Positions 4,834-43,162 of a stretch of DNA of 64,000 nucleotides are shown piece by piece (within the stretch, counting starts at the first letter, position 1; every line of letters begins with the position of its first letter). Below the pieces are notes generated by a model that was not told the origin of the DNA, did no database searches, and saw nothing but the letters and a program-made list of their open reading frames with translations. The position numbers and the translations under genes were made by a program. The DNA lies in assembly GCA_944391215.1 (NCBI GenBank), contig CALXSR010000052.1, positions 64,511 to 128,510 on the forward strand. The letters run 5' to 3'. This DNA is from an uncultured Clostridia bacterium. GTDB lineage: Bacteria; Bacillota; Dehalobacteriia; UBA4068; CALXSR01.

Positions 4834-5406
4834 TTATTTTTTAAATAATAAATGCTGACATTTTAAATAATAATCGACCCCAGAATAAACGGTAAAAAAT
4901 ACTGCTAACCATAAAGTAATCTGACCTATCCAATAAATCAAAGTATTGATAATGGTATTACCAAATATGGACAAAATAACCGGGGAATCGTATAAAATCA
5001 AACCGGAAATCGCAACAATTTGTACAATTGTTTTTATTTTACCTAGTTTAGAGGCAGATATCACTTCACCTTCTGCCGCAGCAATCGTACGCAAACCGGT
5101 AACAGCAAACTCTCTGCTAATAATGATGATAACAAACCAAGCGCTAATTTTATCTAATTGCAAAAGGGCGATCAAAGCAGTTGATACCAAAAGTTTATCT
5201 GCCAAAGGATCCAAAAATTTTCCTAAAGTAGTAACCTGCTTTCTAGAACGAGCAATGTATCCGTCCAACCCATCAGTACTAGCCGCAACAATAAAAATAA
5301 TCGCCGCTAATAAACTACCATATTCAGGTATTTCTGTTAACAAAACAATCAAAAAAACAGGAACCAGAAAGATACGAGCTAAGGTAATTTTATTGGCTAA
5401 ATTCAC
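4834..5406 (-). CDS. pgsA: CDP-diacylglycerol--glycerol-3-phosphate 3-phosphatidyltransferase.
   Basis: 190 aa, multi-TM, with the CDP-alcohol phosphatidyltransferase motif DGLDGYIAR...G..LDP.ADK. Confidence 0.85.
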   Translation of the reverse strand: MNLANKITLARIFLVPVFLIVLLTEIPEYGSLLAAIIFIVAASTDGLDGYIARSRKQVTTLGKFLDPLADKLLVSTALIALLQLDKISAWFVIIIISREFAVTGLRTIAAAEGEVISASKLGKIKTIVQIVAISGLILYDSPVILSIFGNTIINTLIYWIGQITLWLAVFFTVYSGVDYYLKCQHLLFKK

Positions 5407-6737
5407 TAGCGAATCAACCTACCTTTCAAATCGTAAATATCGCTATCGGTAATTTCTACTTCTACCACATCGCCAACATTAAGCTGCTCAGCCGCTACAT
5501 AAATTACCCCGTCTACTTCCGGCGCTTGATAACAACAACGGCCCACATAATAAGGACTTCCTGCAACCGGTAATTCCTCAATCAAAACCGTAAAAATTTT
5601 ACCAATACGGGCAGCCCTTTTCTGTGCCGAAATACCCGCTAATAATTGCATTGCCTTATCCTGTCGGCTTTGCTTAATCCAATCCGGAATTTGTCCTTTC
5701 ATTGTTTCCGCCTTGGTTCCATCTTCTGGGCAAAAAGAGAAAACTCCCACCCAATCAAACTGCGCCTTTTCTATAAAGGACAATAAGTTTTTAAAATCTG
5801 CAGCTGTTTCCCCAGGAAAACCAACCATCAAAGTAGTTCGAATTGCGATATTAGGAATATATGCCCGACATTTTGCTAATAGGTCTAAAAGTTGCGCACT
5901 ATCCCCTTGCCGATTCATAGCCTGTAAAACACTTTTCTCACTGTGCTGCAAAGGAATATCCAAATAAGGACAAATTTTTTCTTCTTCTGTCATTACTTGT
6001 AATAATTCGTCCGTAATACGATCCGGATAAGTATATAAAATACGAATCCACAAAAAAGGCAAGCGACAAAGTTTTTTTAATAAAGTAGGCAAATAGTAGC
6101 TGCCATATAAATCTTTTCCATAATTCGTCGTATCCTGCGCCACTAGAATAAGTTCTTTTACGCCTCTCTGCGCTAGTATTTTAGCCTCTTCTATAATATC
6201 TTCCATTGGTCGACTGCTATATTTACCCCGAATAGCAGGAATTGCACAATACGCACAACAATTATTACAACCATCAGCAATGCGTAAATAAGCAAAATGA
6301 CCAGGACTCAATAATTTACGCCGACAATATATGGTATTATCCATTTTAGGCACACAACTACGTAACTTAGCAAAACCATTTATTTGACAAAGCAATGGGG
6401 CCAACTCCCCTACTTTATAGAATCCATCCACCTCAGGGATTTCATGCATTAACTCTTCGGCATATCTTTGTACTAAACACCCCATCGCAATCAATAACTG
6501 ACATTGGCCAAACTCTTTTTCTTTATACTGTGCCATCGTTAAAATGGTTTCAATAGCCTATTCTTTGGCAGACTGAATGAAACCGCAGGTATTCACGATG
6601 ATAATATCAGCGTCCTGCGGTTCTTCTACTATGACATATCCTTCTTGTTGTAATAAACCCAAAAGGATTTCACTATCCACCTGATTTTTGGAACATCCCA
6701 AACTAGCCAAATAAACAGTATTTTGCAATTTAATCAT
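5406..6737 (-). CDS. rimO: Ribosomal protein S12 methylthiotransferase RimO (MiaB-family radical SAM plus TRAM domain). It carries an in-frame TAG at 6558-6560, which is codon 60.
   Basis: The reverse translation from ATG at 6735-6737 reads [73 protein letters not shown]... The MTTase N-domain continues in the same frame into the 376-aa ORF 5406..6536, which holds the radical-SAM CxxxCxxC motif and a C-terminal TRAM domain. Total length is about 443 codons, matching RimO. Confidence 0.75.
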
Positions 6738-10228: not shown

Positions 10229-11837
10229 TTATAAATCTTGCTGAATAACACGAGCAATATTATTTGCATGGTCCCCTACCCGCTCTAAATTACCAATCAT
10301 ATCCAAAAAGACAATGCCGGAAGCCGGAATACATTTTCCATCACTTAAACGCGTAATATGGCTTTTGCGCAGTATCTTTTCCATATCGTCAATGGCATTT
10401 TCCTGGGCTAAAATTCGCTTCGCATACATAATGTCGCTTTTTTTCAACCCCTCAATGGCACTATACAAAATATCGCTTGTTAAAGCCGCCATCGTACGCA
10501 GTTCCTCTAAAGCCAAAGAAGAAAAATACAAATTTTCATCCATACTGGTTTGCGCTAATTCACAAATATTGGTAGAATGATCACTCACTCGTTCAAAGTC
10601 ATGCGTTGCCTGAATTAAACCGGTTACTATAGCCGAATCATGATCCGTTAAGCCTTGTTGCGCTACTTTTGATAAATAAGTATTAATTGCCGTTTCCAAG
10701 CTATCTATCACATCTTCTTTTTCCATCACATCTTTTATCTGTTCTTTATCCTTTTGAAAAAAAAGCCTGCATAGCATTTTCAAAATTCTCAGTTGCCAAC
10801 TCTCCCATACGGGTCAATTCTTTTTTTGCTAGGGAAATAGCAATACTAGGAGTAGCGATGCTTTTATTGTTCAAGTAAAGAGGTCCCTTTACAATCACTC
10901 TTTCTTCCCCAGGCATAATACGGTTAACTAAAGCAACAAACTGATTGATAAAAGGTAATAAAATAATGGTAGTGATGCAGTTAAAGATGGTATGCGCATT
11001 GGCAATTTGCCGGGCAATATCCGCCCCGGAAGATAATGTTTCTACCAAAATTTTAAAATAGGGCAAAAACAACATACATAATATAGCGCCAATTACATTA
11101 AATAAAACATGAGAAAGCGCGGCCTTTCTAGCATTCAGTTTAGTGCCAATACTAGCTAACATAGCGGTAATACAAGTTCCAATATTCATCCCCAGCATAG
11201 CCGGTAAAGCAACGTCTAAACCAATTAACCCCTGCGAACTCATAGCAATCAAAATACCAATCGTAGCACTACTACTTTGCACAACAAATGTAATAAGCAT
11301 CCCAATTAATAAAATTAAAACGCTATGGCCACCAAAACGAATAATAAAATCCTGGAACATAACGGAATCTCGTAAAGGAACCATAGAACTACTCATAATT
11401 TCCATGCCCATAAAAAGAAGGCCAAAGGAGAAGAAAACAAAACCCGTATACTTCAATGTATTTTTTTTCGCAATAAAATAAATTAAAAAACCAAATGCTA
11501 AAATAGGCAAATAATAATCGCCTAAATCAAAGGCAATCAATTGAGCTGTAACCGTAGTACCAATATTAGCACCAATAATAACGGCTACCGCCTGTTTCAA
11601 AGTCATTAACCCGGCGTTAACAAAACCGATTACCATAACGGAAGTTGCGCTACTGCTCTGAATAATAGCAGTAACAACAGTACCCAATAGAACCCCTAAA
11701 ATAGGATTACTTGTCAGAGCGCTTAATATACTCCGCATGCGGTCCCCAGCTATTTTTTGCAGACCGGTTCCCATATTGGTCATACCATAGATAAATAAAG
11801 CTAAGCCGCCAAAGAGGCTCAAAACACTCATTACCAT
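10229..11837 (-). pseudogene. Na/Pi-cotransporter II-related protein (YjbB-like transporter domain plus C-terminal PhoU-like domains), split by a frameshift at a T8 homopolymer.
   Basis: ORF 10746..11837 (363 aa) is the transporter domain; ORF 10229..10783 (184 aa) holds the PhoU-like repeats. They overlap by 38 nt in different frames. Removing one base from the A8 run at 10757-10764 (T8 on the coding strand) fuses ...AMQAFF to QKDKEQIKDV..., giving a single protein of about 547 aa. Confidence 0.6.
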
Positions 11838-21707: not shown

Positions 21708-21732
21708 TTTCCCCCTCCTAAAACACGGCTGA

Positions 21733-22875: not shown

Positions 22876-22939
22876 TTTAACCACCAATACACACGCTTTT
22901 TGTTTCAGTCTATGCCAAAAAAATAGTAGATAAAACAAA

Positions 22940-22968
22940 AAAAGCCCGGTAAATTACCGAGCTTTTTC
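22940..22968 (-). terminator. Rho-independent terminator downstream of pnp.
   Basis: AGCUCGGUAA-uu-UUACCGGGCU stem on the minus strand, followed by UUUUUUUGUUUU. Confidence 0.6.
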
Positions 22969-22989
22969 ATGCTTATAATGGTATGCTTC

Positions 22990-25146
22990 TTATTCTTCAC
23001 TTTTTTCTTTTTGCATTTCATGCATAGCATCTTTCCTGGATAATTTAACCTTACCCTGCGGATCAATGGCCAGCACTTTTACATAAATCTCATCGCCTTC
23101 TTTGCAAACATCCTCTACTTTTGCTACCCGTTTATCATCTAACTGCGAAATATGCACCATCCCGTCTTTTCCAGGCAAATCTAAAACACTGGGAATGATT
23201 TCCACAAAAGCGCCAAAATCCATTACTTTTACAACTTTGCCGTGGTAAATTTTTCCTACTTCCGGTTCGGCAACAATGCTGTTGATGATTTCCAAAGCTT
23301 TTTCGCCTTTTTCAGCATCCACACAAGCTATAAACACGCGACCATCATCTTCAATATCAATTTGAGCTCCCGTTTCTTCAACAATCTTTTTAATGACTTT
23401 ACCCCCGGAACCAATTACCTCCCGAATTTTATCCGGATGAATTTTGGTTTGAATAATACGTGGGGCATAAGGAGAAAGTTCTGTCCGCGGTTCACTAATT
23501 GCTTCCATCATTTTGCCCATAATATGCATGCGTCCTTCTTTTGCTTGTGCCAAAGCTCTGGTAAATACTTCCTTATTGATACCGGCAATTTTAATATCCA
23601 TCTGCATAGCGGTTACGCCTTTGGCAGTACCGGCTACTTTAAAGTCCATATCCCCTAAAAAGTCTTCCATGCCCTGAATATCCGTTAAAATTGTAATATC
23701 GTCTCCATCTTTAATCAATCCCATGGCTACCCCGGCCACAGGCGCTTCAATGGGAACCCCAGCATCCATTAAAGAAAGCGTACTGGCACAAACGCTACCC
23801 ATAGAAGTGGAACCGTTAGATTCAATCGCTTCTGATACCAAACGTAGCGTATAGGGGAATACATCTTCACCGGGAATAACCGGCTCCAAAGCGCGTTCCG
23901 CTAAAGCCCCATGACCAATTTCCCGGCGACCAGGTCCCCGCATGGGTCTCGTTTCCCCAACACTGTAAGGAGGAAAATTATAATGGTGCATATAACGTTT
24001 TGAATCTTCCACGCCAAGGCCGTCTAAAATTTGTTCGTCCCCCATGGCGCCCAAAGTACAAGCATTTAAAATTTGGGTTTGCCCACGTGTAAACAAAGAA
24101 GAACCATGCGTTCTGGCCAAAACGCCAACTTCGCAAGTAATTGGACGGACTTCTGTTAAGGCACGGCCATCAATACGTAATTTATCTTTGGCAATCATTT
24201 TACGGAACTCTTCTTTTTCCAAGCTGTATAAGATAGCATCAATATCCGCTTTATTTTCTTCTTCTTCATCAATAAATTTAGCAGTAATATCTGCTTTTAT
24301 TTCATCTAAATAAGCATCGCGGTCTGCTTTGCTCAGCCGTTCCGCAGCAATTTTGTGTACCGCTTCATAAAGCAATGGCTGACCGTAAGCATAAATTGCC
24401 TCTTTTAAAGCCGCATCAGGTTCCGGTGGATTAAATTCCACTTTTTCTTTCGCTAAACCCATTACCAAAGCTTCTGCACGAAAATCTTCAATAAAGGCAA
24501 CAATCTTTTTAATTTCTTCATGCGCATATAAAATAGCGTCTAAAACAACTTCTTCCGGAATTTGTTTCATACCGGCTTCCACCATCATAACAGCATCTTT
24601 GGTACCCGCCACGGACAAATGCATGGAACTTGCTTCTGCTTCTTCCGTATTGGGGTTTAAAATAAACTTTCCGTCAATCAAACCAATTACTACTCCGCCA
24701 ATTGGGCCGGCAAATGGAATATTAGAAATGTGCAAAGCAGCGGAAGCTGCAATCATTGCCACCATATCCGGCGGATTATTTTGATCTACCGATAAAACGG
24801 TAGCCACTACTTGTACATCATTGCGATAAGCTTTTGGGAACAAGGGCCGAATGGGACGATCAATAATTCGGCTAGACAAAATTGCTTTTTCAGTAGGGCG
24901 ACCTTCCCTTTTGATAAACCCTCCAGGAATTTTCCCTACCGCATACAATCTTTCTTCATAATCTACGGTTAATGGGAAAAAATCTATTCCATCTCTAGGA
25001 CTTGCCGATTGCGTTGCTGTCGCCAAAAGCATAGTATCCCCATAGCTAGCAAAAATAGCGCCCCCAGCTTGTTTGGCCATCCGACCAGTTTCCAATGTAA
25101 GTTGGCGTCCCCCAACTTCCAGGCTTTTCTTTAAAACTGCACTCAT
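22990..25146 (-). CDS. pnp: Polyribonucleotide nucleotidyltransferase (PNPase).
   Basis: About 718 aa: two RNase PH domains, then KH and S1 domains. Start set at MSAVLKK with GGAGG 8 nt upstream. Confidence 0.95.
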
Positions 25147-25244
25147 TGCCTGTAAACCTCCATCTTTTACATCCATTTATTTCTATTTCTTCATAACCTT
25201 TTTTCTTTTCGACATGTATTTATTTTCTCCTGCTAGAGAAATAT

Positions 25245-25273
25245 TTAAACAAAAAAGAGCGTTAAAAACGCTC
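25245..25273 (-). terminator. Rho-independent terminator downstream of rpsO.
   Basis: GAGCGTT-ttta-AACGCTC stem, followed on the minus strand by TTTTTTGTTT. Confidence 0.7.
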
Positions 25274-25285
25274 TTTTCCCATCCA

Positions 25286-25555
25286 TTATCTTCTTAAACC
25301 TAATTCGTTAATAATTTTACGATAGCGGTCAATATCTTTAGACTTCAAGTAGTTCAACAACCCTCTTCTTTGCCCAACCATTTTTAATAAACCGCGGCGA
25401 GAATGAAAATCTTTTTGATGTTCTTTCAAGTGCTCGGTTAAATGATTAATGCGATAAGTTAAAATCGCAATTTGAACTTCCGGAGAACCGGTATCTCCTT
25501 CATGGATTGCAAACTTGTTAATAATCTCCTGTTTCTTTTCGGGTGCCATGTTCAT
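25286..25555 (-). CDS. rpsO: 30S ribosomal protein S15.
   Basis: 89 aa, typical S15 sequence. Confidence 0.95.
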
Positions 25556-25658
25556 GGCTCACACCTCCTGAAATTTTTTATTATCCCCTATATCCAAGCA
25601 CAAAGCCGGAGAACAATGTCCCTAGAAATAGGTTTTACAGCTTTTTTATTATACCGCA

Positions 25659-26630
25659 TCAAAACGTTTTTGGCAAGAGCAGATTCCGGTCAATCGGTCT
25701 TTTCTCCATAAGCGCTTTTGCCGTCTTTTTATCTTGACTTATTTGTTTTTGCAAATGCACCACATTAGCAAATTTTTGCTCTGGGCGAATAAAATCTAAA
25801 AGCCAAACCCATAGCAATTTACCATAAAAATCCTCATTCGTGTCAAATAAATGCGCTTCCAAAAAATGTTGTTCATGATCGCTTATTGTGGGTTGCTTAC
25901 CAATATTGGCTACACCATCATATAATTGGCCTTCGCAGGCCGCTGCAATCCGGTAAACCCCATTTACTGGTTTTTGTTTTTCTTTGGGGCAAATCAAATT
26001 AGCGGTAGGGAAACCCAATTGTCTTCCTAATTGTTTTCCCTTCACAACCTGACCGGAGAAACAATAGGCATAGCCTAATAGTGCATTCGCTTTTTGTAAA
26101 TTTCCAGACTGCAAAGCTTGCCGAATCACGCTGCTGCTAACGATCATACCATTTTGCTTTACAGGAGGAGATACGGTTAATAAAAAACCATGCTGTTGCG
26201 CTAAACGAGCCAGCAATTTTGTTTCACCAGCCGCTTTTGCTCCAAACGTATAATTAAAGCCAACAAATAGATGATTTACCTGCAATTTTTCCACCAAAAT
26301 ATTAGAAACAAATTCTTGAGGCAACATATCGGCCCAAATTTGTGTAAACTCTTGATAAATTAAATAATCAATCCCTAAATAGCGTAATAAAGCTTCTTTT
26401 TCCATATCATTGTTTAGCAAAGAAGGCGCAGTGCCACATAACTTGCTTAGCGGATGCGGATGAAATAAGAAAACACCGGAAGAAGCTTTTTCTTTCTGAC
26501 AAGCTTCCTGCATTTTTGCAAGTAAGCAACGATGGCCTAAATGGAATCCATCAAAATTACCCAATGCTAAATTCAATTTCACTTGCGGATTTTCTCGGCG
26601 AAAATCCTGCCATGCCTGATAAATTTTCAT
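25659..26630 (-). CDS. ribF: Bifunctional riboflavin kinase / FMN adenylyltransferase.
   Basis: 323 aa with the GNFDGFHLGH motif and a C-terminal riboflavin-kinase domain. Confidence 0.9.
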   Translation of the reverse strand: MKIYQAWQDFRRENPQVKLNLALGNFDGFHLGHRCLLAKMQEACQKEKASSGVFLFHPHPLSKLCGTAPSLLNNDMEKEALLRYLGIDYLIYQEFTQIWADMLPQEFVSNILVEKLQVNHLFVGFNYTFGAKAAGETKLLARLAQQHGFLLTVSPPVKQNGMIVSSSVIRQALQSGNLQKANALLGYAYCFSGQVVKGKQLGRQLGFPTANLICPKEKQKPVNGVYRIAAACEGQLYDGVANIGKQPTISDHEQHFLEAHLFDTNEDFYGKLLWVWLLDFIRPEQKFANVVHLQKQISQDKKTAKALMEKRPIDRNLLLPKTF

Positions 26631-27559
26631 ATTTCACAACTTCCCTCTTTAACTGGTGGCGTTAAAAAAACCTTGTCCATCTGTAAAATATAATGTTCCT
26701 CGTTCTGGGTTAAATGGCCGATTCCCAATAATTTCCCTTCCGGAGTTAGAATACAACTTGCTTTTTGCAGTTCTAGCTTTTCTGGCAAAAAACAAACTTT
26801 TCTACCATACATTAAATCAATTTTTTGCTTTTCTGTTACTAGGATTTGCGGCAAATGCGCTATCACCTGTTCCATCGGAATGAAAAAAGAAAAATCTTCT
26901 TTTTGCACCATATCGGCCAAATTTTCTAAAGTGATCGCATTTTCTTTTTTAAAAAAGCCTACTGCACAGCGTTCTAAAGCAGACATATATGCGCCGACCC
27001 CTAAAATAGCGCCGATATCGTGACATAGGGTACGAATATAGGTGCCTCTTGAACAGCAAATATCCAAAACAGCCTTAGGATTTGACTTTTGCCAATCCAT
27101 AGAAACGATTTGCAATTGATAAATCGTGATCTGCCTTGCCGGTCTTTCTACAATCTGACCCTTTCTTTGCAGTTTATATAATGGTTGCCCCTGCACTTTT
27201 ATTGCGGAGGCCATTGGCGGCACCTGCTCAATTTGACCAATAAATTGTGGAATAACTGCTCGTAAATCATCTTCCTTGATATTGGTACAATCCGTTTCCG
27301 TCAAAATCTTACCTTCCCTATCCTGGGTATCAGTCGTTTTACCGAAGGTAATTTCCGCCAAATAACGTTTGGGTAAATCCATAACATATTCCGTTAATCT
27401 GGTTGCTTTTCCAACAGCCACCGGCAAAATGCCGGCCGCAGCAGGATCTAATGTTCCACTATGGCCGGCTTTTTTTATTTGCAATGTTTTTTTACATAAT
27501 GTAATTGCTCTTTGTGAGCTAATTCCTTCTGGCTTATACAGATTGATAAAACCATCCAT
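26627..27559 (-). CDS. truB: tRNA pseudouridine(55) synthase.
   Basis: 310 aa with the GHSGTLDP catalytic motif. There is a 4-nt overlap with ribF. Confidence 0.9.
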   Translation of the reverse strand: MDGFINLYKPEGISSQRAITLCKKTLQIKKAGHSGTLDPAAAGILPVAVGKATRLTEYVMDLPKRYLAEITFGKTTDTQDREGKILTETDCTNIKEDDLRAVIPQFIGQIEQVPPMASAIKVQGQPLYKLQRKGQIVERPARQITIYQLQIVSMDWQKSNPKAVLDICCSRGTYIRTLCHDIGAILGVGAYMSALERCAVGFFKKENAITLENLADMVQKEDFSFFIPMEQVIAHLPQILVTEKQKIDLMYGRKVCFLPEKLELQKASCILTPEGKLLGIGHLTQNEEHYILQMDKVFLTPPVKEGSCEI

Positions 27560-27561
27560 AC

Positions 27562-28542
27562 TCAGTCATTTACCTTTATTTCTTTTTTTACTGTTTCCAC
27601 TACTTGGGCAATACATTCTAGTAAAGAGCACATCATAGTGGCTCCGGCAGCCGCAACATGCCCACCGCCGCCCAAAGCCATTGCTATTTTACCAACATTA
27701 TAATTGTCGCGGCTACGGAAACTTACTTTTACTTTATTTTCTTCTATCTCATCAAATAATAACGCAACTTCAGCGCCTTTCTTATATAAAGCATAATTGA
27801 TGATATTATTACAATCTTGCGCCCTTGCACCATATTTTTGCTTGTCCGCTATTGTCAGCTTCATCATAACCAGCCAGGGTTCCACTTCCTCCAAACTAAC
27901 CATAGCCGTCCCTATCATTTTAATGCTGGCTAAAGTGCGACATTCGAACAGTTGAACTCGAACCAACTGCGTATCAATATGATACGTAAGTAAATCGCTC
28001 GCATAGATAAAACACTCTGGCGTTGTATTTTGGTAACGAAAACAACCGGTATCGGAAACAATTCCGGCATAAATACAAGTTGCAATTTCCTTATTCAAAG
28101 GGATTTGTAAATTTTTCAGCAATTCATAAATCAATTCACAAGTAGCGGAAGCTGCAGGTTTAATCCATAGGAGATCACCCATTGGCGTCGCACTATCATG
28201 ATGGTCAATGACAGCGATAGGAATATCTCGCCACGATTCTATCATGGCCTCCGCTCCTGCCCGCTCTAAATCAGAACAATCTACCAACAGAATCATATCT
28301 GGCTTTTGCTGATACTGTTCTAAAGGAATAATCTGCTCAATACCAGGTAAAAAAAACAGATTATCCGGCGGTTGATTAGCTAAAACAGCATCAATCTTTC
28401 TAGTTTCATTTTCTAAAGCTAATTTTATCGCCAACATAGCGCCAATGCAATCCGCATCCGGGTCCACATGTCCCATAACCACAATATTTCGGCAACGGTT
28501 TATGGCAGTGTCAATTTTATAACAAATCGCTTGTTCTTTCAT
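27562..28542 (-). CDS. nrnA: DHH/DHHA1 phosphoesterase (NrnA-type oligoribonuclease / pAp phosphatase).
   Basis: 326 aa carrying the DHH motif (DHHD) and a GGGH DHHA1 motif. Confidence 0.8.
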   Translation of the reverse strand: MKEQAICYKIDTAINRCRNIVVMGHVDPDADCIGAMLAIKLALENETRKIDAVLANQPPDNLFFLPGIEQIIPLEQYQQKPDMILLVDCSDLERAGAEAMIESWRDIPIAVIDHHDSATPMGDLLWIKPAASATCELIYELLKNLQIPLNKEIATCIYAGIVSDTGCFRYQNTTPECFIYASDLLTYHIDTQLVRVQLFECRTLASIKMIGTAMVSLEEVEPWLVMMKLTIADKQKYGARAQDCNNIINYALYKKGAEVALLFDEIEENKVKVSFRSRDNYNVGKIAMALGGGGHVAAAGATMMCSLLECIAQVVETVKKEIKVND

Positions 28543-28883
28543 TCTTTTTCTAATCCCTCAATAATTTTAGCAATTTTAATACTATGCGCAATAGAATCGT
28601 CATCAATAAAATGCAATTCTGGGACAGTTCTAACTTTTAAACGCTTTGATAATTCATGACGAATAAAGCCAGCCGCATTTTGAATGGTTTGCAAATTCTT
28701 TGCCACGGCTTCTTTATCGCCAATAGAGCTTAAATATACCTTTGCATGTTTTAAATCACCAGACACTTCTGTTTTTAATACAGAAACTAAAGTGCCGTTT
28801 TCTATTTGAATTTGGTTAGCAATAATATCTGCTACTTCTTTTTTTACTTCTTCGGCCATCCGGCCTAACCGATATTGGGCCAT
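28539..28883 (-). CDS. rbfA: Ribosome-binding factor A.
   Basis: 114 aa, RbfA family. Confidence 0.9.
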   Translation of the reverse strand: MAQYRLGRMAEEVKKEVADIIANQIQIENGTLVSVLKTEVSGDLKHAKVYLSSIGDKEAVAKNLQTIQNAAGFIRHELSKRLKVRTVPELHFIDDDSIAHSIKIAKIIEGLEKE

Positions 28884-28897
28884 AAAAACCCTCCTTT

Positions 28898-31800
28898 TTA
28901 GAGCGCTCTTTTTATCTCTTCCATAACAAAAGCTTCTATCACGTCGCCTTCATGGAAATCATTAAAGTTTTCAAAACTAATGCCGCACTCAAAGCCTTCC
29001 ATAACTTCTTTCACATCATCTTTAAACCGTTTTAAAGAATCAATTTTATCTTCCGTTACCACAATACCATTGCGCGTTAAACGCACTTGCGCCTGTCTTG
29101 TAATTTTGCCATCTGTGATATAGGAACCCGCTACCATGCCAGCTTTTGGTACTTTAATAACTTGACGCACTTCAGCATGACCAATAACGACTTCTTTAAA
29201 TTCAGGATCAAGCAGACCAGACATCGCTTTTTTCACATCCTCAATCGCATCATAAATAACGCGATAAGTGCGAATATCCACTTGTTCTGTTTCCGCCAAT
29301 TTACTAGCCGGAATAGATGGCCGTACATTAAACCCAATAATGATAGCAGTAGAAGCCGTTGCCAACATAACATCAGACTCTGTAATCGCCCCAACGCCAC
29401 TATGAATAATATTTACTTTCACTTCATTATTATTCAAATTAGTTAAGGATTGTTTTACCGCCTCAACAGAACCCTGCACATCAGCTTTTACAATTAAGTT
29501 TAATTCCTTAATTTCCCCTTCGGCAATATGGGTAAATAAATCTTCTAAAGTAATTTTGCTGTTTTTACGCAATTCTTCTTCCCGTTTTTTAGATTGCAAT
29601 TTTGCCGCCACAGATTTTGCATCACGTTCATCCTTAGCCACAATAAAGATTTCACCCGGCGGCGGTACTTCAGAAAAACCAATTACTTCAACCGGCATGG
29701 AAGGTCCAGCAGCCTTTACCTTACGACCTTTATCATCTAGCATCGCCCGTACTTTACCAAACACCGAACCGGCTAAAATATTATCGCCCACTTTTAAAGT
29801 ACCTTTTTGTACTAATAAAGTGGCCAAAGGCCCTCTTCCTTTATCTAATTGCGATTCGATAATGGTGCCACGAGCTTTCCGTTTGGGGTTCGCTTTTAAT
29901 TCAGCCACTTCGGCAACCAATAATATCATTTCTAAAATTTGTGCAATATTTTGGCCAGTCTTCGCAGCTACAGGAACCATAATGGTATCGCCGCCCCATT
30001 CTTCTGCAACCAAACCATATTCCATCAATTCCTGTTTTACTTTATCCGGATTCGCCCCTTGTTTATCTATTTTATTAATTGCAACAATAATAGGCACATT
30101 TGCTGCTTTGGCATGGTTAATAGCTTCCACCGTTTGTGGCATAACGCCATCATCAGCGGCCACTACTAAAACTGCAACATCCGTTACCTGTGCTCCACGG
30201 GCACGCATCGATGTAAAAGCTTCATGACCAGGCGTATCTAAAAATGTAATTTTCTTATTATTGATTTCTACTTGATAAGCCCCAATATGCTGTGTAATAC
30301 CGCCAGCTTCGGTAGCAATTACATTGGTTTTACGAATCGCGTCCAATAAAGAGGTCTTCCCATGGTCAACATGCCCCATTACCGTAACAACAGGAGGCCG
30401 TTCCATCAAATCATCCTCATCATCATCTGCATCTTCCATAATTTCTATGGCTTTATCGGCCGCTACTTCCACGGTAATGCCGAATTCTTCCGCCAGCAAA
30501 ATGGCAGTATCCGACTCTAACTCCTGATTGATAGTTGCCATAACGCCCATTTCAAAAAGCTTTTTAATCACTTCAGCAGCTGTTTTTCCCATACTTTTTG
30601 CTAAATCTTGCAAAACAACGGTTTCGCCAATCACAACCTTTTTCGGCACAACAGGCGGCATTTGTTTCTTCGGCGCTACATTTTTATTTTTACGCCCTCT
30701 ATCGTTGCGATGAGGAATTTTACCGCTTTTTTTTCCCATCCCATCTTCGCCAAAATTATCATTTAATACATCACGATTATCCTTAAATAATTTTTTATCT
30801 GGCCTACGACTGGTCGGCTTTTCTACCGCTGGAGTTGTATATTTCATACCGCCTTCTATACTGCCGGTTGTCTTTGGACCACGGTTCTGCCCACTATTTC
30901 CGGCAAATCCGCCAGCAGGGCGCAGACCACGGTTTCCTTGACTGGGACTTCCTTGAAAACCACCGGCAGAACGCGGACCGCGATTATCCTGCCCTTGATA
31001 ATTGGGGCGCGGACCGCGATTGTCTTGCCCTTGCTAATTGGGGCGCGGACCGCGATTGTCCTGCCCTTGGTAATTGGGGCGCGGACCGCGATTGTCCTGC
31101 CCTTGGTAATTGGGGCGCGGACCGCGATTGTCTTGCCCTTGATAATTCGGGCGCGGACCGCGATTATCTCTATTATCTTGTTGATAATTTGTATTTTGAT
31201 TTCTTTGTTGTTGATGAAAATCACGATTAGGAACAGGCGTATTTTGTCTGCTTGCTTTCTTTTCAATAGTTTCTTCCAGCATGGCATCATTTGTTGTTTT
31301 CACTGCTTGTTGCGGCGGAGTAACCGGAACAATAGTTGGTGGTGCTTCTTCTTTTTCCGTATTATTAACAGGAGTCTCAGGAGTAGTTTTCAGTTCTTCA
31401 GACACCGAAAGAATGGGCGCCTTTTCCGCAACAGATGCTTCTGTTTTTGGCATTTCTTTTTTAGGAGCAGATTGAACTACCGGCTCTTCTTTTTTCTCAA
31501 TTACAACTGCCTTCTTCTCTTCAGACGGTATCACGGCTTCTTTTTCCACAATTTTTTCCGTCTTTTTCTCCTCTGTTTGCGCTACCACTTTTTCTGAATT
31601 AACCAAAACATCTGCTTCTATTTTTGTTACCATATTTTCTTCGGTTCCTTTATTCCCCTCTGTTATTTCTGTTTTCTTCTTAGCATCCAAGTTAAAGGCC
31701 TCCATTTCAGAAGCTTCTAAATCCGTTTTTCGAATTCTTTTTACCCTTGGGATAAAAGAAGTATCATCATTTTTATTTTTGCTGCTTTTTTTCCCACTTA

Positions 31801-31948
31801 TACTTTCCCGCAAAGCTTTACAGTACTGTTCTTCCACAGTACTCATATGATTTTTGGCCTCGCTTCCCAAAGCATTTAAGCGGCCCAGCAAATCTTTTGT
31901 TTCTAAATTCAACTCCTTGGCCAACTCATGCACTCTTATTTTAGCCAT
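28898..31948 (-). CDS. infB: Translation initiation factor IF-2. The reading frame is continuous apart from one in-frame TAG at 31034-31036.
   Basis: The canonical N-terminus [13 protein letters not shown] sits at 31946-31948 behind RBS AGGAG. The G-domain ([24 protein letters not shown]) and C-terminal domains lie in ORF 28898..30847. Both ORFs share one frame (31036 minus 30847 equals 189, a multiple of 3). The only interruption is the TAG inside the repeat array. Confidence 0.85.
30968..31165 (-). repeat. About 5.4 tandem copies of a 36-bp unit inside the infB N-terminal region, encoding repeats of [12 protein letters not shown].
   Basis: Near-identical 36-nt units (gcggaccgcgattgtcctgcccttggtaattggggc and variants) can be read directly. 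They generate the alternative-frame ORFs 30856..31290 and 30938..31597. Confidence 0.85.
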
Positions 31949-31959
31949 ACAACCACTCC

Positions 31960-32283
31960 TTATTTTTCATCGCCTGGTTTTCCAACAAATAACACCTTTT
32001 CAATACCTGCTGCAAAATTTTTATCCAATATAGCAACGGCAGCTCGAGGCGATTTGCCAATTGCCATACCAAACTCCATCTTAGTTCCATAGAAATAATA
32101 ATTCATCTTATAACGTTGTGCTTTCTTGCTCAGTAATGCCCTACTATTATCAGAAGAATCCTCTGCAATCAAAACCAAAAAGCTCTTCTTCCTTTCCATT
32201 GCCATAAGAACAGCGTCATCCCCTGCGGCCAATTTTCCAGCTCTTTGCGCTAAACCCAATAAAGAAGCAACTTGTTTTTCCAT
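31960..32283 (-). CDS. L7Ae-family ribosomal protein (YlxQ).
   Basis: 107 aa of L7Ae/L30e fold, between infB and ylxR. Confidence 0.8.
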   Translation of the reverse strand: MEKQVASLLGLAQRAGKLAAGDDAVLMAMERKKSFLVLIAEDSSDNSRALLSKKAQRYKMNYYFYGTKMEFGMAIGKSPRAAVAILDKNFAAGIEKVLFVGKPGDEK

Positions 32284-32541
32284 TTATAATCTCTCTTTAA
32301 TATCTTCCAAAATTTCTTGGCTAATTTTTACTTTTAGCGCCCTTTCCAAAGCTTTCGATTTTACCGCCTTAGCCAAACATTCCTCATTAGGACAAAGATA
32401 AGCACCCCGGCCAGGCAATTTTCCATTGCCATCTAAAAGAAGTTGCCCTTCTGGATTTCTGACGACTCGAATTAATTCTCTTTTGTTTTTCATTTCCCGA
32501 CAGCCAACGCACATTCTTTGCGGCATACTCTTTTGTGCCAT
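32284..32541 (-). CDS. YlxR-family RNA-binding protein (DUF448).
   Basis: 85 aa carrying the MCVGCREMKNKRELIRVV motif, between nusA and the L7Ae gene. Confidence 0.8.
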   Translation of the reverse strand: MAQKSMPQRMCVGCREMKNKRELIRVVRNPEGQLLLDGNGKLPGRGAYLCPNEECLAKAVKSKALERALKVKISQEILEDIKERL

Positions 32542-32552
32542 ACGAATCTCTC

Positions 32553-33674
32553 CTAATCCTCTACTGGCATATCTAACTCATTTATTTCGTTACTACCATC
32601 ATTATTTTCTTGTTCCTCGGCACTTTCAGTCGCCAATAATTCCGCATATTGCGATTCACTTTTTATATCGATCTTCCAACCAGTTAATTTCGCTGCCAAA
32701 CGAGCATTCTGCCCTTCCTTACCAATTGCTAAAGAAAGCTGCGAATCTGGTACAATAACTCTAGCAAATTTCCCATCTTCTACAATATCCACTGAAAGCA
32801 CTTTCGCCGGACTCAAGGCATTACTTACAAACACAACTGGGTCCGCATCCCAAGTAACAATCTCAATTTTTTCCCCATTCAATTCATTAACAATATTTTG
32901 TACCCGCATGCCTTTTGCCCCAACACAAGCGCCGACTGGATCAATATTGCTGTTACGGCTATACACCGCTATTTTAGAACGGCTACCAGCCTCTCTTACC
33001 ACTGATTTTATTTCCACCGTTCCGTCATGAATTTCCGGCACTTCCATTTCAAATAAACGTTTTAATAAACCTGGGTGAGTACGAGATACCACAATTTGCG
33101 GACCTTTGGTGGTCTTTTTCACTTCTAACACATAAACTTTCAAGCGTTCCCCTTGACTATAGTGCTCCCGGGGAATTTGTTCGGCTGGTAATAACAAAGC
33201 TTCTGCTTTTCCCAAATCAATAAAAACGTTCCTGTTTTCAATTCTAGCTACTTTGCAATTTATAATGTCACCTTCCCGACCAGCATATTCATCATAAATC
33301 ATGCTACGTTCTGCTTCTCTTAACCTTTGTACCACCACTTGTTTCGCAGTTTGCACCGCAATCCGCCCAAAGGAACGAGGCGTTACTTCCGATTCTAAAA
33401 TATCCCCTATTTCAAATTCCGGATCAAGCTCCTGCGCTTCCTGCAAAGAAATTTGCAAACGATCATCTTCCACTTCTTCTACCACTTCTTTACGGAAAAA
33501 CACATGTGTTTCCCCAGTCATTCTATCAATTTCTACTCTTACATTTTGAGAAGAGCCAAAATTCTTTTTATAAGCGGAAATTAAAGCCGCTTCAATTGCC
33601 TCAATTAAAACATCACTATCAATTCCTTTTTCTTTTTCCAAATCTCTTAGCGCTTCAATAAACTCTAAATTCAT
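32553..33674 (-). CDS. nusA: Transcription termination/antitermination factor NusA.
   Basis: Start set at MNLEFIEALRDLEKEKGI (ATG 33672-33674) with RBS GAGGAG. It carries S1 and KH domains. Confidence 0.9.
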   Translation of the reverse strand: MNLEFIEALRDLEKEKGIDSDVLIEAIEAALISAYKKNFGSSQNVRVEIDRMTGETHVFFRKEVVEEVEDDRLQISLQEAQELDPEFEIGDILESEVTPRSFGRIAVQTAKQVVVQRLREAERSMIYDEYAGREGDIINCKVARIENRNVFIDLGKAEALLLPAEQIPREHYSQGERLKVYVLEVKKTTKGPQIVVSRTHPGLLKRLFEMEVPEIHDGTVEIKSVVREAGSRSKIAVYSRNSNIDPVGACVGAKGMRVQNIVNELNGEKIEIVTWDADPVVFVSNALSPAKVLSVDIVEDGKFARVIVPDSQLSLAIGKEGQNARLAAKLTGWKIDIKSESQYAELLATESAEEQENNDGSNEINELDMPVED

Positions 33675-33703
33675 TTTCTCACTCCTCAATTTCCCAACAT
33701 CAT

Positions 33704-34177
33704 TTAAAAGGTAAATACCAAATGTGCAGAAGCAATTTCCGCAAACGGCAACCAAATATCGCCTTCTGCCGTTTTTATGCCAACTTTATTATCATTCAAA
33801 CCTAATAAAATGCCCTCATATTCCTTTTGCCCCTGCCACGGAGCATATAAATTGCATTTTGCTTTTTCTCCTGCAAAGCGCTGGAAATGCTCCGGTTTTT
33901 TCAAAGCTCTTTCTACGCCAGGAGAAGAGATTTCCAACATATATTCATGACTAATGGGATCTAAAATATTCAAAGCTTCACTTAATTGTTCACTTACAGC
34001 CTGACAAGCGTCATGATCAATAGGAATTTCCCGATCAATGTAAACGCGCAAAACCCAATTACTGCCTTCTTTTTGATATTCAATATCCAGTAATTCGCAA
34101 CCATTTTCTACAGCGGCTTTTTCCGCCAAAGGCATAACCTGACTTATCACTTTATTTTGCCCAGCCATAAAGCACAT
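33704..34177 (-). CDS. rimP: Ribosome maturation factor RimP.
   Basis: About 155 aa, RimP family. Its 3' end overlaps the nusA start by about 31 nt. Confidence 0.85.
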   Translation of the reverse strand: MCFMAGQNKVISQVMPLAEKAAVENGCELLDIEYQKEGSNWVLRVYIDREIPIDHDACQAVSEQLSEALNILDPISHEYMLEISSPGVERALKKPEHFQRFAGEKAKCNLYAPWQGQKEYEGILLGLNDNKVGIKTAEGDIWLPFAEIASAHLVFTF

Positions 34178-34202
34178 CCTTTTCTATTACTAAGGCTAAC
34201 AA

Positions 34203-34231
34203 ATGAAAAAGTGGGTTTTTGACCCACTTTT
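34203..34231 (-). promoter_or_regulatory. Terminator-like hairpin in the rimP-nusA-infB leader; a candidate NusA-dependent attenuator.
   Basis: The perfect inverted repeat AAAAAGTGGGT-caaaa-ACCCACTTTTT lies 26-54 nt upstream of the rimP start. On the minus-strand RNA it is followed by UUUUUCAUUUGUU. Confidence 0.35.
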
Positions 34232-34373
34232 CCGAAAAACAATCTTTACCTAAATAATATACCATATATTTTCCTGAACAGCAAGTATTATACAAAATTT
34301 CTTTTTTCTATACTGGTTAAATAAGCAGAAATAGACTAAAATAAAAGTACTTCATCAAAGAAAGGATAAAAAA

Positions 34374-34856
34374 ATGTCTATCATTAAAGTAAAAGAATAT
34401 TTTCATCAATATAATCGAGAAAAAGATATTTTAGAATTCACGGTATCTAGCGCTACGGTAGAATTAGCTGCCCAAGCATTACAAGTAATTCCGGCCCGTA
34501 TTGCCAAAACACTTTCCTTTAAAACAGAAAACGGTTGTATTTTAATCGTTACTGCAGGTGACAGTAAAATTGATAACAGCAAATATAAAGCCGAATTTCA
34601 CTGTAAAGCAAAAATGCTTACCCCAGAAGAAGTAATTGATTTTACCGGACACGCCATTGGCGGTGTATGTCCTTTTGCAATTACAAATCCAAAAGTAAAA
34701 ACATATTTGGATATTTCTTTACAGCGTTTTGTTACAGTGTTTCCCGCCTGTGGCAGTAGCAATTCTGCTATAGAATTAACTTGTGAGGAATTATTTGCTT
34801 ACAGCAATGCTTTAGCATGGGTGGATATTTGCAAAGGTTGGCAGGAAGATATTTAG
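34374..34856 (+). CDS. ybaK: YbaK/ProX-family aminoacyl-tRNA deacylase.
   Basis: 160 aa carrying the HAIGGVCPF motif. Confidence 0.8.
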   Translation: MSIIKVKEYFHQYNREKDILEFTVSSATVELAAQALQVIPARIAKTLSFKTENGCILIVTAGDSKIDNSKYKAEFHCKAKMLTPEEVIDFTGHAIGGVCPFAITNPKVKTYLDISLQRFVTVFPACGSSNSAIELTCEELFAYSNALAWVDICKGWQEDI

Positions 34857-34919
34857 GAACTTTATCTTTACGCATGACATATGATAAAAAGTGATTTCTT
34901 GTAATAAGAAGGGCTGTCC

Positions 34920-35834
34920 ATGCGTAAAAAAAATACAACCCCAGCCAATATTGCAATCCATGTTTCTGCTACCACCATTTTTGCTAATACTATACTTTCC
35001 GTTTTTAAATTATTGGCGGGTATTTTGGCGCAATCCAGCGCTATGATATCGGATGCTATTCATACCATTTCCGATGTACTTAGTACTTTATTGGTGATTG
35101 CTGGGGTTAAAATTTCCACCAAATCCGAAGATAAAAACCACCCCTATGGGCATGAAAGAATGGAATGCGTTGTGGCTTTGGCTTTATCCGCGATTTTACT
35201 TGTTGTTGGTACCACGATTGGTTTTGATGGCATACAAAAAATATACCATCATGCTCAGCCGCTGCCACCCAATCTGTTTTTTACCAATTTCGCCCTAGGG
35301 ATGGCAATCCTATCTATTGCGGTCAAAGAATGGATGTATTGGTACACCATCAAAGCAGCAAAACAAATTAACTCTAGCGCCCTACTAGCCGATGCTTGGC
35401 ACCATCGTTCAGACGCCCTTTCTTCCTTAGGTAGTTTTATCGGCGTTTTAGGGATTCGTATAGGACTCCCTTTTTTAGATCCTCTTGCCTGTTTTATTAT
35501 TTGCGTCTTTATTTTAAAAACGTCTTATGACATTGCCAAAGAAGCGATTAACGAACTAATTGACCATGCTTGCGATGAAAAGACCATCCAACAAATGAAA
35601 GAATGTATTTTGCAAAATGTAGAAATATTGCGTTTGGATGTTTTAAAAACAAGGCTGTTTGGAACCAAAATATATGCCGACTTAGAAATTTCTTTGGATA
35701 GCAAACTAAATTTGCAACAGGCACATGCAATCGCAACAAAAGTCCATAACCAATTAGAAAATGCTTTTCCTGATATGAAACATTGTATGGTGCATGTAAA
35801 TCCATATTCTGATGATTCGCATCACCATCTATAA
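34920..35834 (+). CDS. Cation diffusion facilitator (CDF) family metal efflux transporter.
   Basis: 304 aa with six TM segments, HPYGHER and HxxxD motifs, and a C-terminal cytoplasmic domain ending in a His-rich tail. Confidence 0.85.
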   Translation: MRKKNTTPANIAIHVSATTIFANTILSVFKLLAGILAQSSAMISDAIHTISDVLSTLLVIAGVKISTKSEDKNHPYGHERMECVVALALSAILLVVGTTIGFDGIQKIYHHAQPLPPNLFFTNFALGMAILSIAVKEWMYWYTIKAAKQINSSALLADAWHHRSDALSSLGSFIGVLGIRIGLPFLDPLACFIICVFILKTSYDIAKEAINELIDHACDEKTIQQMKECILQNVEILRLDVLKTRLFGTKIYADLEISLDSKLNLQQAHAIATKVHNQLENAFPDMKHCMVHVNPYSDDSHHHL

Positions 35835-35837
35835 AAA

Positions 35838-35876
35838 ATAAAAAGTCCGGTACTTTAAAGTACCGGACTTTTTTAT
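35838..35876. terminator. Bidirectional Rho-independent terminator between the convergent CDF and DcuC-like genes.
   Basis: AAGTCCGGTACTTT-aa-AGTACCGGACTT stem, flanked by an A run and a T run. Confidence 0.75.
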
Positions 35877-35887
35877 GTTTTGACCTA

Positions 35888-37186
35888 TTAATGAACAAAC
35901 AATAAACCATACCATACATAACAGAAAATTAAGCCAACAATGCAAGGTACTGCAGTAAGTTTAATTAAATCCATCGGACTTTGTTTAGAGAAAGAAGCAC
36001 AAAGAATGGTAACACCAGCAACAGGAGACATGGAGCGCCCAAAGCAACCAGCCAAGTCAGCCAAAATACCAATGGACAACGGGCTTAAGCCCATATCAGC
36101 TACATAAGGAGTAATAGCAGTATTGAAAGCAAGTGTAGGAGCATCCCCGGAACCAGAAACAAAAGCAATTGCAAAAGGCCCAATAGCAGCAGCAATCGCA
36201 GCAATATAACTAGCACTGGACATGTAAGCAATCAAAGCATCGATCAAACCAACTTCCTGCATCCCAAAAGTGAATACACCAGCACAAACGATCAAACTAG
36301 ATACTTCAGCATAACCATAGCCAACGCCTTTAAAAGCTTCTTTGATAGCTTGGCCAGGGTTGCATCTGGTTAAAATAACAGCAATAATACAAGAGATATA
36401 CATAGCTTGTCTAATATCCAAAGCCGGAATAACTTCTGTTACACTAGCTAAGCCCATACAACCGAAAATTAAAATAACCGGCAAGAAAGGCATAAGAGCA
36501 TGCAAAATATTGATTTTAATTTTTTCTTCACTATCGCTACCAGTTTGTTCCGCAAAATCCCCATTAACGTCAACATAACCGGAATCTTCTTTTTTCATTT
36601 TTGCCATAATAACTAAAATAATAGAACCACCAATTAAGGTAACAATTGTAGGAATAAGCATTGAAGGAATAACTTCCGGAGGAGTAATACCAGCCCCCTC
36701 AGCAATCAACGCAACTTGAGAACCAAATGCAAGCACGTTACCATAGCTGCAGAATAACAAAGTAGCACCAGCCATTACTGGATGAACACCAGCACCAACC
36801 ATTACGGGAATAATAACCGGACCAACTGCAGCAGCAAAACCAGCAGGACTATTAATAGCATAGCAAATAACGGCCCCAACCACAACAGTAGCAGGAATAA
36901 TAATAGCTTTCATTTTCTTAACGCCACCCATTAACCAGGTAGCTAATTGCACGTCGCATTTGGTATAATTCATCAAATAAGCATACGCACAAGCAGCCGC
37001 AATAACCTGCGGAATGTATCCAGCTAATTGGCTACTGATCGTGTCAATAGCGGGTAAAAATTTACCGGACAACAAAGTCATAATAATACCGGCAGCCAAC
37101 AAAATCAGTCTTGGTTCGAACTTTTTAATAATTAAATAAAAAGACACGATAATGAGAGCCACACTAATCCACATCGTAACAGTCAT
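35888..37186 (-). CDS. DcuC-family anaerobic C4-dicarboxylate transporter-like membrane protein.
   Basis: 432 aa, polytopic, with about 12 TM segments. The length and hydrophobicity pattern fit DcuC or a related ion-transporter family. RBS AGGGGG. Confidence 0.5.
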   Translation of the reverse strand: MTVTMWISVALIIVSFYLIIKKFEPRLILLAAGIIMTLLSGKFLPAIDTISSQLAGYIPQVIAAACAYAYLMNYTKCDVQLATWLMGGVKKMKAIIIPATVVVGAVICYAINSPAGFAAAVGPVIIPVMVGAGVHPVMAGATLLFCSYGNVLAFGSQVALIAEGAGITPPEVIPSMLIPTIVTLIGGSIILVIMAKMKKEDSGYVDVNGDFAEQTGSDSEEKIKINILHALMPFLPVILIFGCMGLASVTEVIPALDIRQAMYISCIIAVILTRCNPGQAIKEAFKGVGYGYAEVSSLIVCAGVFTFGMQEVGLIDALIAYMSSASYIAAIAAAIGPFAIAFVSGSGDAPTLAFNTAITPYVADMGLSPLSIGILADLAGCFGRSMSPVAGVTILCASFSKQSPMDLIKLTAVPCIVGLIFCYVWYGLLFVH

Positions 37187-37671
37187 TTTTTAATTACCCC
37201 CTAAAAATTTCAAGATATTCTTTTTTTAGACATGTTTTATGCTCGCCTAAGATGCCATAAGCCTCCTTTCCTATCCAAATGAAAAAAATAATAATTCAGT
37301 TCTCATAAAAATTGGTCTGACAACAAACCAAAAGGTTAATTCTACAATTTTCGGGGAAATCCTGCTCTGCCTTCTTTTTTAATAAAGGAAATAAGAAAGA
37401 AACTAATTTTTAGTTATAATGGCTGCTTCTATTATACTTTACCTATCAATAGAATAGGTTTTTTATGATATTATTTTTCACAAAATGAACACGATTCATA
37501 AAAAAATAAAAAAATCATATTGAGAATGATGATTACTAATAGTTATAAATACAGTAAGTTATTCCTATTTTTTTAATTTTGCATCACGGGTGATAGGCTA
37601 TAGCCTATTTTCTATATCATATCTCATAAAAACCATACTGACAAGTATTTTTTTTACAGCACGAAAAAACA

Positions 37672-38634
37672 TTAATATCCCAACTTTTTGTTGACCAAAT
37701 GTGTTAATTCGTCTTTCTTTGCATAACGTTTTAAATTTTCCAAAAAAATCTGCAACACATTTTCACATGTTTTGGGTAAAGACATATTACCTGATATATG
37801 CGGCGTTAATATCAAATTTTTTGCCTGCCAAAGCGGATGATCCGTAGGCAAAGGCTCTGGCACTGTCACATCAATAGCAGCACCTCCAAGGGGGCCATTG
37901 CATAATGCATCATATAAAGCTTCTTGATCAATCGCCGATCCGCGTCCAACATTGATTAAAATAGTCCCTTCCTGCATTTTTTGTAGGCGTTCTTTATTTA
38001 TAATAAATTGCGTATCTTGCGTAGAAGGCAAGCATAAAGCAACTACATCTGCCCCGGCTATCGCTTTATCCAAGTCTTCTACCGTATAAACTTCATCAGC
38101 CCACTGCGGTTTTTCTTTCACGGTTCGCCGCACTCCGCGCACTTTTGCCCCCATCGCTTTTACTCTTTGACCAAAATTACTGCCAATATCACCCATCCCC
38201 ACAATCGTAATGCAACTACCATAAATGGATTTCACATTCCCTGCTTGACGCCATTCCCTATTCTTCATCATTTCCATATATTCCGGCATGCGACGCATCA
38301 ACATCAGCAAAACACAAATCATGTGTTCTGAAATAGTCAAACCATAGGCCCCTGCTGCATTGGTAAGCAAAACCTCATCTTTTGCAAACAACCCGCTATC
38401 TTTTATTTTATCAACCCCAGCAAAGGAGCATTGCAACCATTTCAAAGCCTTGGCTTGCTTTAATAAATCTACAGGAAAAGAGCCAAATAAAACTTCACAC
38501 TGCTCAATTGCAGCAACCGGAATTGTCCCATTAAAAAATTGACAAGAGAATCCAAGCTGTTGCGCTGTAACAGCAATTTCGTTTTTATCTGCTTCGCTCA
38601 AAAAAGAACCGTTTATCCCAATCATTCTTGCCAT
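37672..38634 (-). CDS. D-isomer-specific 2-hydroxyacid dehydrogenase family protein (NAD-binding).
   Basis: 320 aa with GxGxIG (GMGDIGSNFGQR) and the catalytic R, E and H motifs (RGS, EALYDAL, PHISG). Confidence 0.8.
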   Translation of the reverse strand: MARMIGINGSFLSEADKNEIAVTAQQLGFSCQFFNGTIPVAAIEQCEVLFGSFPVDLLKQAKALKWLQCSFAGVDKIKDSGLFAKDEVLLTNAAGAYGLTISEHMICVLLMLMRRMPEYMEMMKNREWRQAGNVKSIYGSCITIVGMGDIGSNFGQRVKAMGAKVRGVRRTVKEKPQWADEVYTVEDLDKAIAGADVVALCLPSTQDTQFIINKERLQKMQEGTILINVGRGSAIDQEALYDALCNGPLGGAAIDVTVPEPLPTDHPLWQAKNLILTPHISGNMSLPKTCENVLQIFLENLKRYAKKDELTHLVNKKLGY

Positions 38635-38838
38635 AATATCTTTACCCCCTTATACTGATATTTTATATTCTCCCAATACTCTAGCATGCAAAAAGTAACT
38701 TTGCAACACCTTTACTTTACGAAAAGGTATCGCACAGTTGCTTCTCTTTCTATATAAAATATTCCACATTTTTAAGTTTTCTTTATTTCTATGTTTAATA
38801 AAGCGCTTTTTCGGTTAACCTTTAAAAGAGGTGATAAC

Positions 38839-40290: not shown

Positions 40291-40298
40291 AAAAATAA

Positions 40299-43147: not shown

Positions 43148-43162
43148 CTTACAATCATTCAC

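Follow-up and report, generated by a model that had tools for sequence, protein, structure and literature searches.

We analysed a stretch of 64,000 nucleotides (the window) and found that its infB gene, which encodes the essential protein IF-2, is interrupted by an in-frame amber codon (TAG) that is private to this one assembly. The account that we prefer, with a probability that we put somewhat short of even, is that the TAG arose as an error of the consensus or the assembly, or was picked up as a rare allele, and that infB reads TAT or TAC and yields full-length IF-2. The G at position 31034 would then not be representative of the working gene. It could have entered the deposited consensus while the surrounding array of 36-bp repeats was assembled or polished, or as a rare population allele that happened to be picked up. 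The organism itself would most likely have TAT or TAC at codon 305 and make an ordinary IF-2, with no part for special decoding. Within this account, we infer that the base at 31034 is itself wrong.

Translation of the minus strand from 31948 to 28898 gave one frame of 1017 codons with a single internal stop at codon 305 (T at 31036, A at 31035 and G at 31034), as the original prediction had described. The stop falls in the disordered N-terminal third of IF-2 and, by the Pfam matches, precedes all of the conserved core domains. The 304-aa part upstream of the TAG has an IF2_N domain at residues 1-50, and the 649-aa part downstream has a second IF2_N as well as GTP_EFTU (the G domain), EF-G_D2, IF-2 and GTP_EFTU_D2. 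Thus, the N-terminus and the G and C-terminal domains reported earlier are all found, divided between the two halves. In a public protein collection the gene is stored as two calls on one NCBI contig of 134,038 nt, P0121 (304 aa) and P0001 (649 aa). As both halves are separate public gene calls, the TAG is present in the deposited sequence. Both also match a single intact 1004-aa IF-2 (P0122) of another assembly, and so represent one gene rather than two chance ORFs. The nearest named IF-2 relatives in a protein search are those of Peptococcaceae and Desulfitobacterium-type Bacillota. The features discussed here are collected in Table 1.

Table 1. Positions of the infB features and of two further disrupted genes in the window.
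Feature	Position	Strand	Evidence
infB (IF-2)	28898..31948	-	Translation; Pfam; 99.6-99.7% DNA identity with the intact infB of L004
Codon 305, in-frame TAG in place of Tyr in copy 4 of the repeat	31034..31036	-	TAT at all repeat Tyr codons in L004 and L015
36-bp tandem repeat array, 12-aa unit, 5 full copies	30972..31165	-	Tandem Repeats Finder score 339; unit-by-unit comparison
Upstream remnant ORF, 304 aa: IF2_N sub-domain and disordered region, ends at the TAG	31034..31948	-	ORF list; public call P0121; Pfam
Downstream ORF, 649 aa, from ATG codon 368 (30847), with the whole IF-2 core	28898..30847	-	ORF list; public call P0001; Pfam
ATG codon 430 (MPPVVPKK), possible internal start, no Shine-Dalgarno (-1.8 kcal/mol)	30659..30661	-	Recurs in homologues
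rimO/MiaB-type methylthiotransferase, 444 codons, TAG at 6560..6558 (codon 60)	5406..6737	-	Comparison with L006 and L012
Na/Pi-cotransporter-PhoU gene with a frameshift at a T8 run (10757-10764)	10229..11837	-	T7 in L006, L007 and L008

The TAG lies in an array for which Tandem Repeats Finder reported 5.4 copies of a 36-bp repeat with 94% matches. When the array was cut into units, the Tyr codons of the five copies read, in order, TAT, TAC, TAC, TAG and TAT. This bears out the claims that the stop occupies the second-from-last copy, next to four siblings with Tyr, and that a single-base change separates Tyr from amber. The array is unusually variable, with six differences in about 125 bp (31025-31148) compared with about 0.3% elsewhere. 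It has five units in this assembly, four in the contig L004 and three in the contig L015, and the unit variants differ among all three. At position 31034, the sibling units and the sister assemblies show only T or C. Mixing of sibling units could therefore yield only these two bases, which counts against an error by chimeric joining; the G must have been present in reads, be they right or wrong.

Exact look-ups of small neighbouring proteins brought in further contigs of the species, so that about 55 kb of the window could be compared. Two of the same-species contigs include infB. L004, an ENA contig of 17.2 kb, is 99.65-99.72% identical to positions 20321-37539 of the window, and the sole indel between them is the one repeat unit that it has fewer. 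Its infB is intact, and the product (P0122) falls into the same 90%-identity cluster as the 649-aa product. L015, from a third assembly (NCBI GCA_947853085.1), has an infB that is open for 779 codons, up to the contig end. In both contigs (99.6-99.9% identical) every repeat Tyr codon is TAT and no stop occurs. The amber codon was thus reproduced in neither of the two other assemblies, but these represent different strains, at 0.1-0.5% divergence, so that an error is not proven by the comparison. Alignment with close relatives had been put forward at the outset as a check on the codon, and what it returned was TAT in both cases and a TAG that is not conserved.

The broken version of the gene was found in no second source. 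For the 304-aa and 649-aa products, cluster membership shows one NCBI contig only, and exact look-ups detected no independent contig encoding either the 649-aa infB product or the 376-aa remnant of rimO, a second disrupted gene described below. Scanning a genome collection with IF-2 peptides retrieved only distant relatives (31-35% identity), the species being absent from that collection, and a scan of JGI metagenomes for the repeat unit in its Tyr or amber version gave no match. When the N-terminal and repeat part, which is specific to the species, was searched against proteins for fragments from other samples, one irrelevant match was returned. We found no mention of the sample or assembly accessions in the literature.

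Several observations favour an error in infB. Among them are the lack of a second contig with the broken products and the ordinary use of TAG as a stop, with no tRNA-CUA or Pyl gene within reach. The codon is private, with frames open and TAT in L004 and L015, and the array around it is one that appears hard to assemble, given unit numbers of five, four and three across the three assemblies. Moreover, the downstream in-frame starts have poor ribosome binding sites, and as a consequence little of the IF-2 core would be made if the stop were not suppressed. Reliance on such starts is unlikely in a strain whose abundance sufficed for a contig of 134 kb. There is also a precedent in L005, an error-prone assembly of a relative, in which infB is in three pieces and nusA in two, indicating that broken infB calls are not rare in metagenome assemblies.

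The overall quality of the assembly points the other way. We counted private substitutions at positions where two other assemblies agree, and found 30 synonymous, 8 non-synonymous and 1 stop change in the window, compared with 25 synonymous and 7 non-synonymous changes in the other assemblies. Random base errors are thus not in excess, and the private substitutions look like normal evolution. We also considered that the window might derive from an error-prone long-read assembly. This was unsupported, given the normal substitution spectrum and only one private coding indel, at a homopolymer (a T8 run), in the approximately 55 kb compared. In addition, a stop would be an uncommon outcome of random change: among the codons of the compared window genes, a random base change gives a stop in 4.6% of cases and TAG in 1.2%.

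Two other genes of the window carry lesions that are private to this assembly and that the original prediction did not mention. The first is rimO, in which an in-frame TAG splits the UPF0004 domain and accounts for the one private stop in the substitution count. In L006 and L012 the codon is GAG (Glu), and the intact 443-aa product has UPF0004, Radical_SAM and TRAM domains. The second is the Na/Pi-cotransporter-PhoU gene, which is frameshifted by the T8 run. When the junction was repaired in silico, a PhoU domain spanned it (Pfam, E = 5e-22), and L007 encodes an intact product of 535 aa. The same gene has its own 1-nt deletion, at another place, in L006, and a FUSC_2 gene (2498-3600) is broken differently in every assembly. 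No further stops or frameshifts were detected in 33163-51425 or 57586-64000.

These lesions can be read in two ways. As two more private changes they could be signs of base-level error in the assembly, but other features of them weigh against an error. With 18 private substitutions in this assembly, rimO looks like a dispensable gene on a divergent haplotype of which the TAG would be a real part. Some real gene decay occurs in the species, since L006 has an independent break in the Na/Pi gene and no assembly has an unbroken FUSC_2 gene. As the substitution spectrum allows so few errors, two error-born ambers are unlikely. The balance for infB nevertheless differs from that for rimO, in that infB is essential, the escape routes from its stop are weak, and its array has been resolved differently by each assembler.

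If the G is real, the TAG might be a genuine nonsense allele of recent origin for which there is no specific suppression, an explanation that we consider unlikely but still worth weighing. The 304-aa fragment would be released and the core would be made at a reduced level from the ATG at codon 368, 404 or 430, by internal initiation of the kind that gives E. coli IF2-2 and IF2-3, perhaps with some basal near-cognate read-through, and the cell would survive through the dispensability of the disordered region. The original prediction had held that either the base is wrong or ribosomes read through the codon. That dichotomy is incomplete, as the stop lies in the disordered third and is followed by an ORF with the complete core. 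In E. coli, IF2-2 and IF2-3 are produced from internal in-frame starts, and IF2 without its N-terminal third is active in vitro and sustains viability when present in excess (PMC3334882), while deletion of the disordered region results only in cold sensitivity (PMC11838494). Given that E. coli tolerates the loss of this region, a real nonsense allele of infB need not be lethal. Short-lived in-frame stops are, moreover, common as bacterial polymorphisms (PMC7918605). The lack of excess base errors fits a genuine allele, as do the other private lesions, in the dispensable genes rimO and Na/Pi-PhoU. Of these, Na/Pi-PhoU has a break in L006 too, and FUSC_2 is disrupted in every strain.

The candidate internal starts speak against a genuine allele. 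All core domains lie downstream of ATG codons 368, 404 and 430, but none of these has a usable Shine-Dalgarno sequence. Their predicted pairing with the anti-Shine-Dalgarno is -4.2, -1.9 and -1.8 kcal/mol, respectively, compared with a median of -9.65 kcal/mol for 44 gene starts of the window, and is no better than at random infB codon positions. The first of them (ATG 368) is 189 nt past the TAG, which is far for re-initiation. Met430, in an M-P-P-V motif, is found again in many relatives, where it immediately precedes the second IF2_N domain, and is missing in several lineages; several database IF-2 entries of 587-591 aa start at this motif. Met368 (motif M-K/R-Y) also recurs in relatives, with Val or Ile substituting there. 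The conservation of both residues may reflect a peptide motif rather than start codons. In E. coli, viability required the truncated protein in excess, and the frame is open in both other assemblies of the species. A truncated IF-2 is here a prediction from the DNA sequence.

The TAG could also be real and decoded, by a chromosomal or prophage suppressor tRNA-CUA or by an expressed pyrrolysine (Pyl) system, such that the ambers in infB and rimO act like missense changes and persist. We regard this as improbable. It would account for the two nonsense codons in about 55 kb both being TAG, where random changes are expected to give 51% TAA, 27% TAG and 22% TGA. Both genes are otherwise under purifying selection, and with infB essential and its internal starts poor, the cell could hardly bear a real TAG unless ribosomes read through it. 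The base after the infB stop is C (TAG C), the weakest termination context in E. coli, and some members of the Peptococcaceae and Desulfitobacterium-type lineages carry Pyl. However, the probability that both nonsense codons are TAG is about 0.07, and rises to about 0.27 once it is allowed that the infB codon was the reason for choosing the window, so that the coincidence is suggestive, not significant. The replaced residues differ (Tyr in infB, Glu in rimO), and suppression leaves unexplained the remaining private lesion, a frameshift.

The genes for such decoding were not found within reach of the window. ARAGORN identified only tRNA-Leu(CAG) and tRNA-Pro(GGG), with no tRNA-CUA in the window or in eight same-species loci, and an Rfam scan of the window detected the same two tRNAs and no tRNA-CUA. 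Pfam scans of the window ORFs outside 19603-37539, which left out three small ORFs (19690-19962, 20008-20457 and 53131-53358), revealed no PylS, PylB, PylC, PylD or methylamine methyltransferase. None of these genes occurs among the gene calls of L004, which cover 20321-37539. These tRNA and Pyl searches cover about 64 kb of the genome and hence say nothing of absence from the genome as a whole.

The use of TAG in the window also bears on decoding. TAG terminates 9 of the 56 window genes (16%), including nusA, thrB, feoB and dpaA, with no sign of avoidance, and a share of this size is typical for low-GC Bacillota. If TAG were read through, a GyrI-like protein would be joined to a response regulator, which would in turn run into the gene that follows it. 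We considered FeoB, the GyrI-like protein and the response regulator as possible read-through fusions and rejected them, as all three have Pfam domains of their own as distinct genes, and the same gene calls are made in sister assemblies. After a TAG terminator the next stop in frame follows at a median of 7 codons, and after TAA at 11, a difference to which we attach no meaning with n=9. A pyrrolysine codon would be expected to be conserved in orthologues, and here the orthologues have TAT in infB (L004 and L015) and GAG in rimO (L006 and L012). Reassignment of UAG would be expected to show as conserved in-frame UAG codons in many genes and as near absence of UAG terminators. In-frame UAG was found in only two genes, both private to this assembly, and terminal UAG is used as described. 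Wholesale reassignment of UAG is thus excluded.

In combination, the case for unusual decoding is weak. The suppressor tRNA or pyrrolysine proposed originally finds no support in the genes within reach, in the terminator usage or in the sister codons. The accompanying judgement that misassembly or mispolishing is the more ordinary explanation agrees with our own estimates, in which error comes close to an even chance, suppression or Pyl decoding is improbable, and a small share of the probability is assigned to none of the explanations.

The TAG is present in the sequence, and the finding is an ordinary one unless reads show the G at full depth. If it is an error or a transient allele, it mainly calls for care: when a metagenome-assembled genome shows a stop within the frame of an essential gene, this is by itself no sign of recoding, least of all inside a tandem repeat, nor must such a stop be lethal where, as in infB, it falls in the disordered N-terminal region. 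Should the G be borne out at full read depth, this would be a natural strain that either gets by on IF-2 with a truncated N-terminus, translated from weak internal starts, or copes with ambers by suppression. The most far-reaching version, an uncultured spore-forming Bacillota strain with an active amber-decoding tRNA (a suppressor, possibly prophage-borne, or constitutive Pyl) whose infB and rimO UAG codons persist in a natural population, seems to us quite improbable.

The infB of this window can be compared with several known systems. As in L005, the gene call is split in the repeat-rich N-terminal region; the breaks in L005, however, are frameshifts in an error-ridden contig, whereas the present window is otherwise clean. 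Some Bacillota and gut bacteria use pylTSBCD to decode UAG as pyrrolysine (PMC3941956, PMC7593587), and our case resembles these in that UAG occurs in frame and the bacterium has relatives in lineages with Pyl users. It differs in that Pyl codons occupy conserved positions of methylamine methyltransferases, whereas the infB codon replaces a repeat Tyr and is absent from sister strains, with no pyl gene or tRNA-CUA within reach of the window.

The likeness to the E. coli IF2 isoforms and N-terminal deletions is a core ORF with in-frame ATGs after a long, repeat-rich and disordered N-terminus. The internal starts of E. coli, however, are sites dedicated to this role that act beside the full-length start, whereas here a short form would arise only via a stop in the long form. 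The candidate starts for IF2-2/3-like products also score poorly as ribosome binding sites, and the shorter form is predicted from sequence. Finally, the codon resembles the transient in-frame stops described by Belinky et al. 2021 (PMC7918605) in being a single-base nonsense change in one strain, in a gene under purifying selection. It differs from them in its setting of an essential gene, a tandem repeat and a metagenome assembly, and because of this setting an artefact is at least as likely as a polymorphism.

The codon-60 TAG of the rimO/MiaB-type gene splits the UPF0004 domain of the encoded protein. Two assemblies of the same species (L006 and L012) have GAG (Glu) at this codon and encode an intact protein of 443 aa. 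The gene also carries 18 substitutions private to the window, the majority of them synonymous. For the three consecutive genes near the window start, TAG stops are the sole separators; three codons follow the first of these stops before the next ATG is reached. Reading this frame as one gene was ruled out, as Pfam places the domains in separate genes.

Features with in-frame stops, frame disruptions or repeat-number differences
Feature	Position	Strand	Observation
GyrI-like, response regulator and next gene (runs off window)	878-2191	minus	Three consecutive genes, one shared reading frame
Membrane-protein gene with FUSC_2 domain	2498-3600	minus	Two frames, split
rimO/MiaB-type methylthiotransferase gene	5406-6737	minus	Second in-frame TAG of window at 6558-6560, codon 60
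Na/Pi-cotransporter-PhoU gene	10229-11837	minus	Frameshift from T8 run at 10757-10764
12-residue repeat in infB	Window 30972-31165; L004 6375-6532; also L015		5, 4 and 3 units, respectively

In the Na/Pi-cotransporter-PhoU gene, three same-species contigs (L006, L007 and L008) have T7 where the window has T8, and repair of the junction restored the PhoU domain across it. The L006 gene has its own independent 1-nt deletion, at window position 11433. Lesions in the FUSC_2 gene differ by assembly: L006 shows G6 versus G5 at 2983, and L012 carries a 2-nt insertion at 2874; a 4-bp indel (3578-3581) lies in its upstream region. From its sequence, this gene looks like a pseudogene species-wide.

Variation was also detected in intergenic DNA. 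Seven window-private substitutions fall within ~110 bp (2209-2316) just upstream of tRNA-Leu(CAG) (2348-2434), a density far above the window average. At ~50525-50540, upstream of a DtxR-type repressor gene, a C7 run reads CCCTTC-T in the comparison contig L028, which differs by two substitutions and one indel. The alignment suggests a variable poly-C tract.

Within IF-2, downstream of the codon-305 TAG, Met430 (M-P-P-V-V-P-K-K; window 30659-30661) is found again in many IF-2 relatives of the clade, directly ahead of the second IF2_N domain, and Met368 (G-M-K-Y-T-x-P; window 30845-30847) is likewise recurrent among them. Either codon may be a candidate site at which translation starts internally to give a short isoform of IF-2. 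The window, L004 and L015 come from three assemblies of the same species, and their difference in unit number reflects either true variation of a variable-number repeat in the disordered region of IF-2 or repeat collapse by the assemblers. Relatives have analogous repeats rich in G/Q/R/P/N/Y, with a sequence quite different from that of the 12-residue unit.
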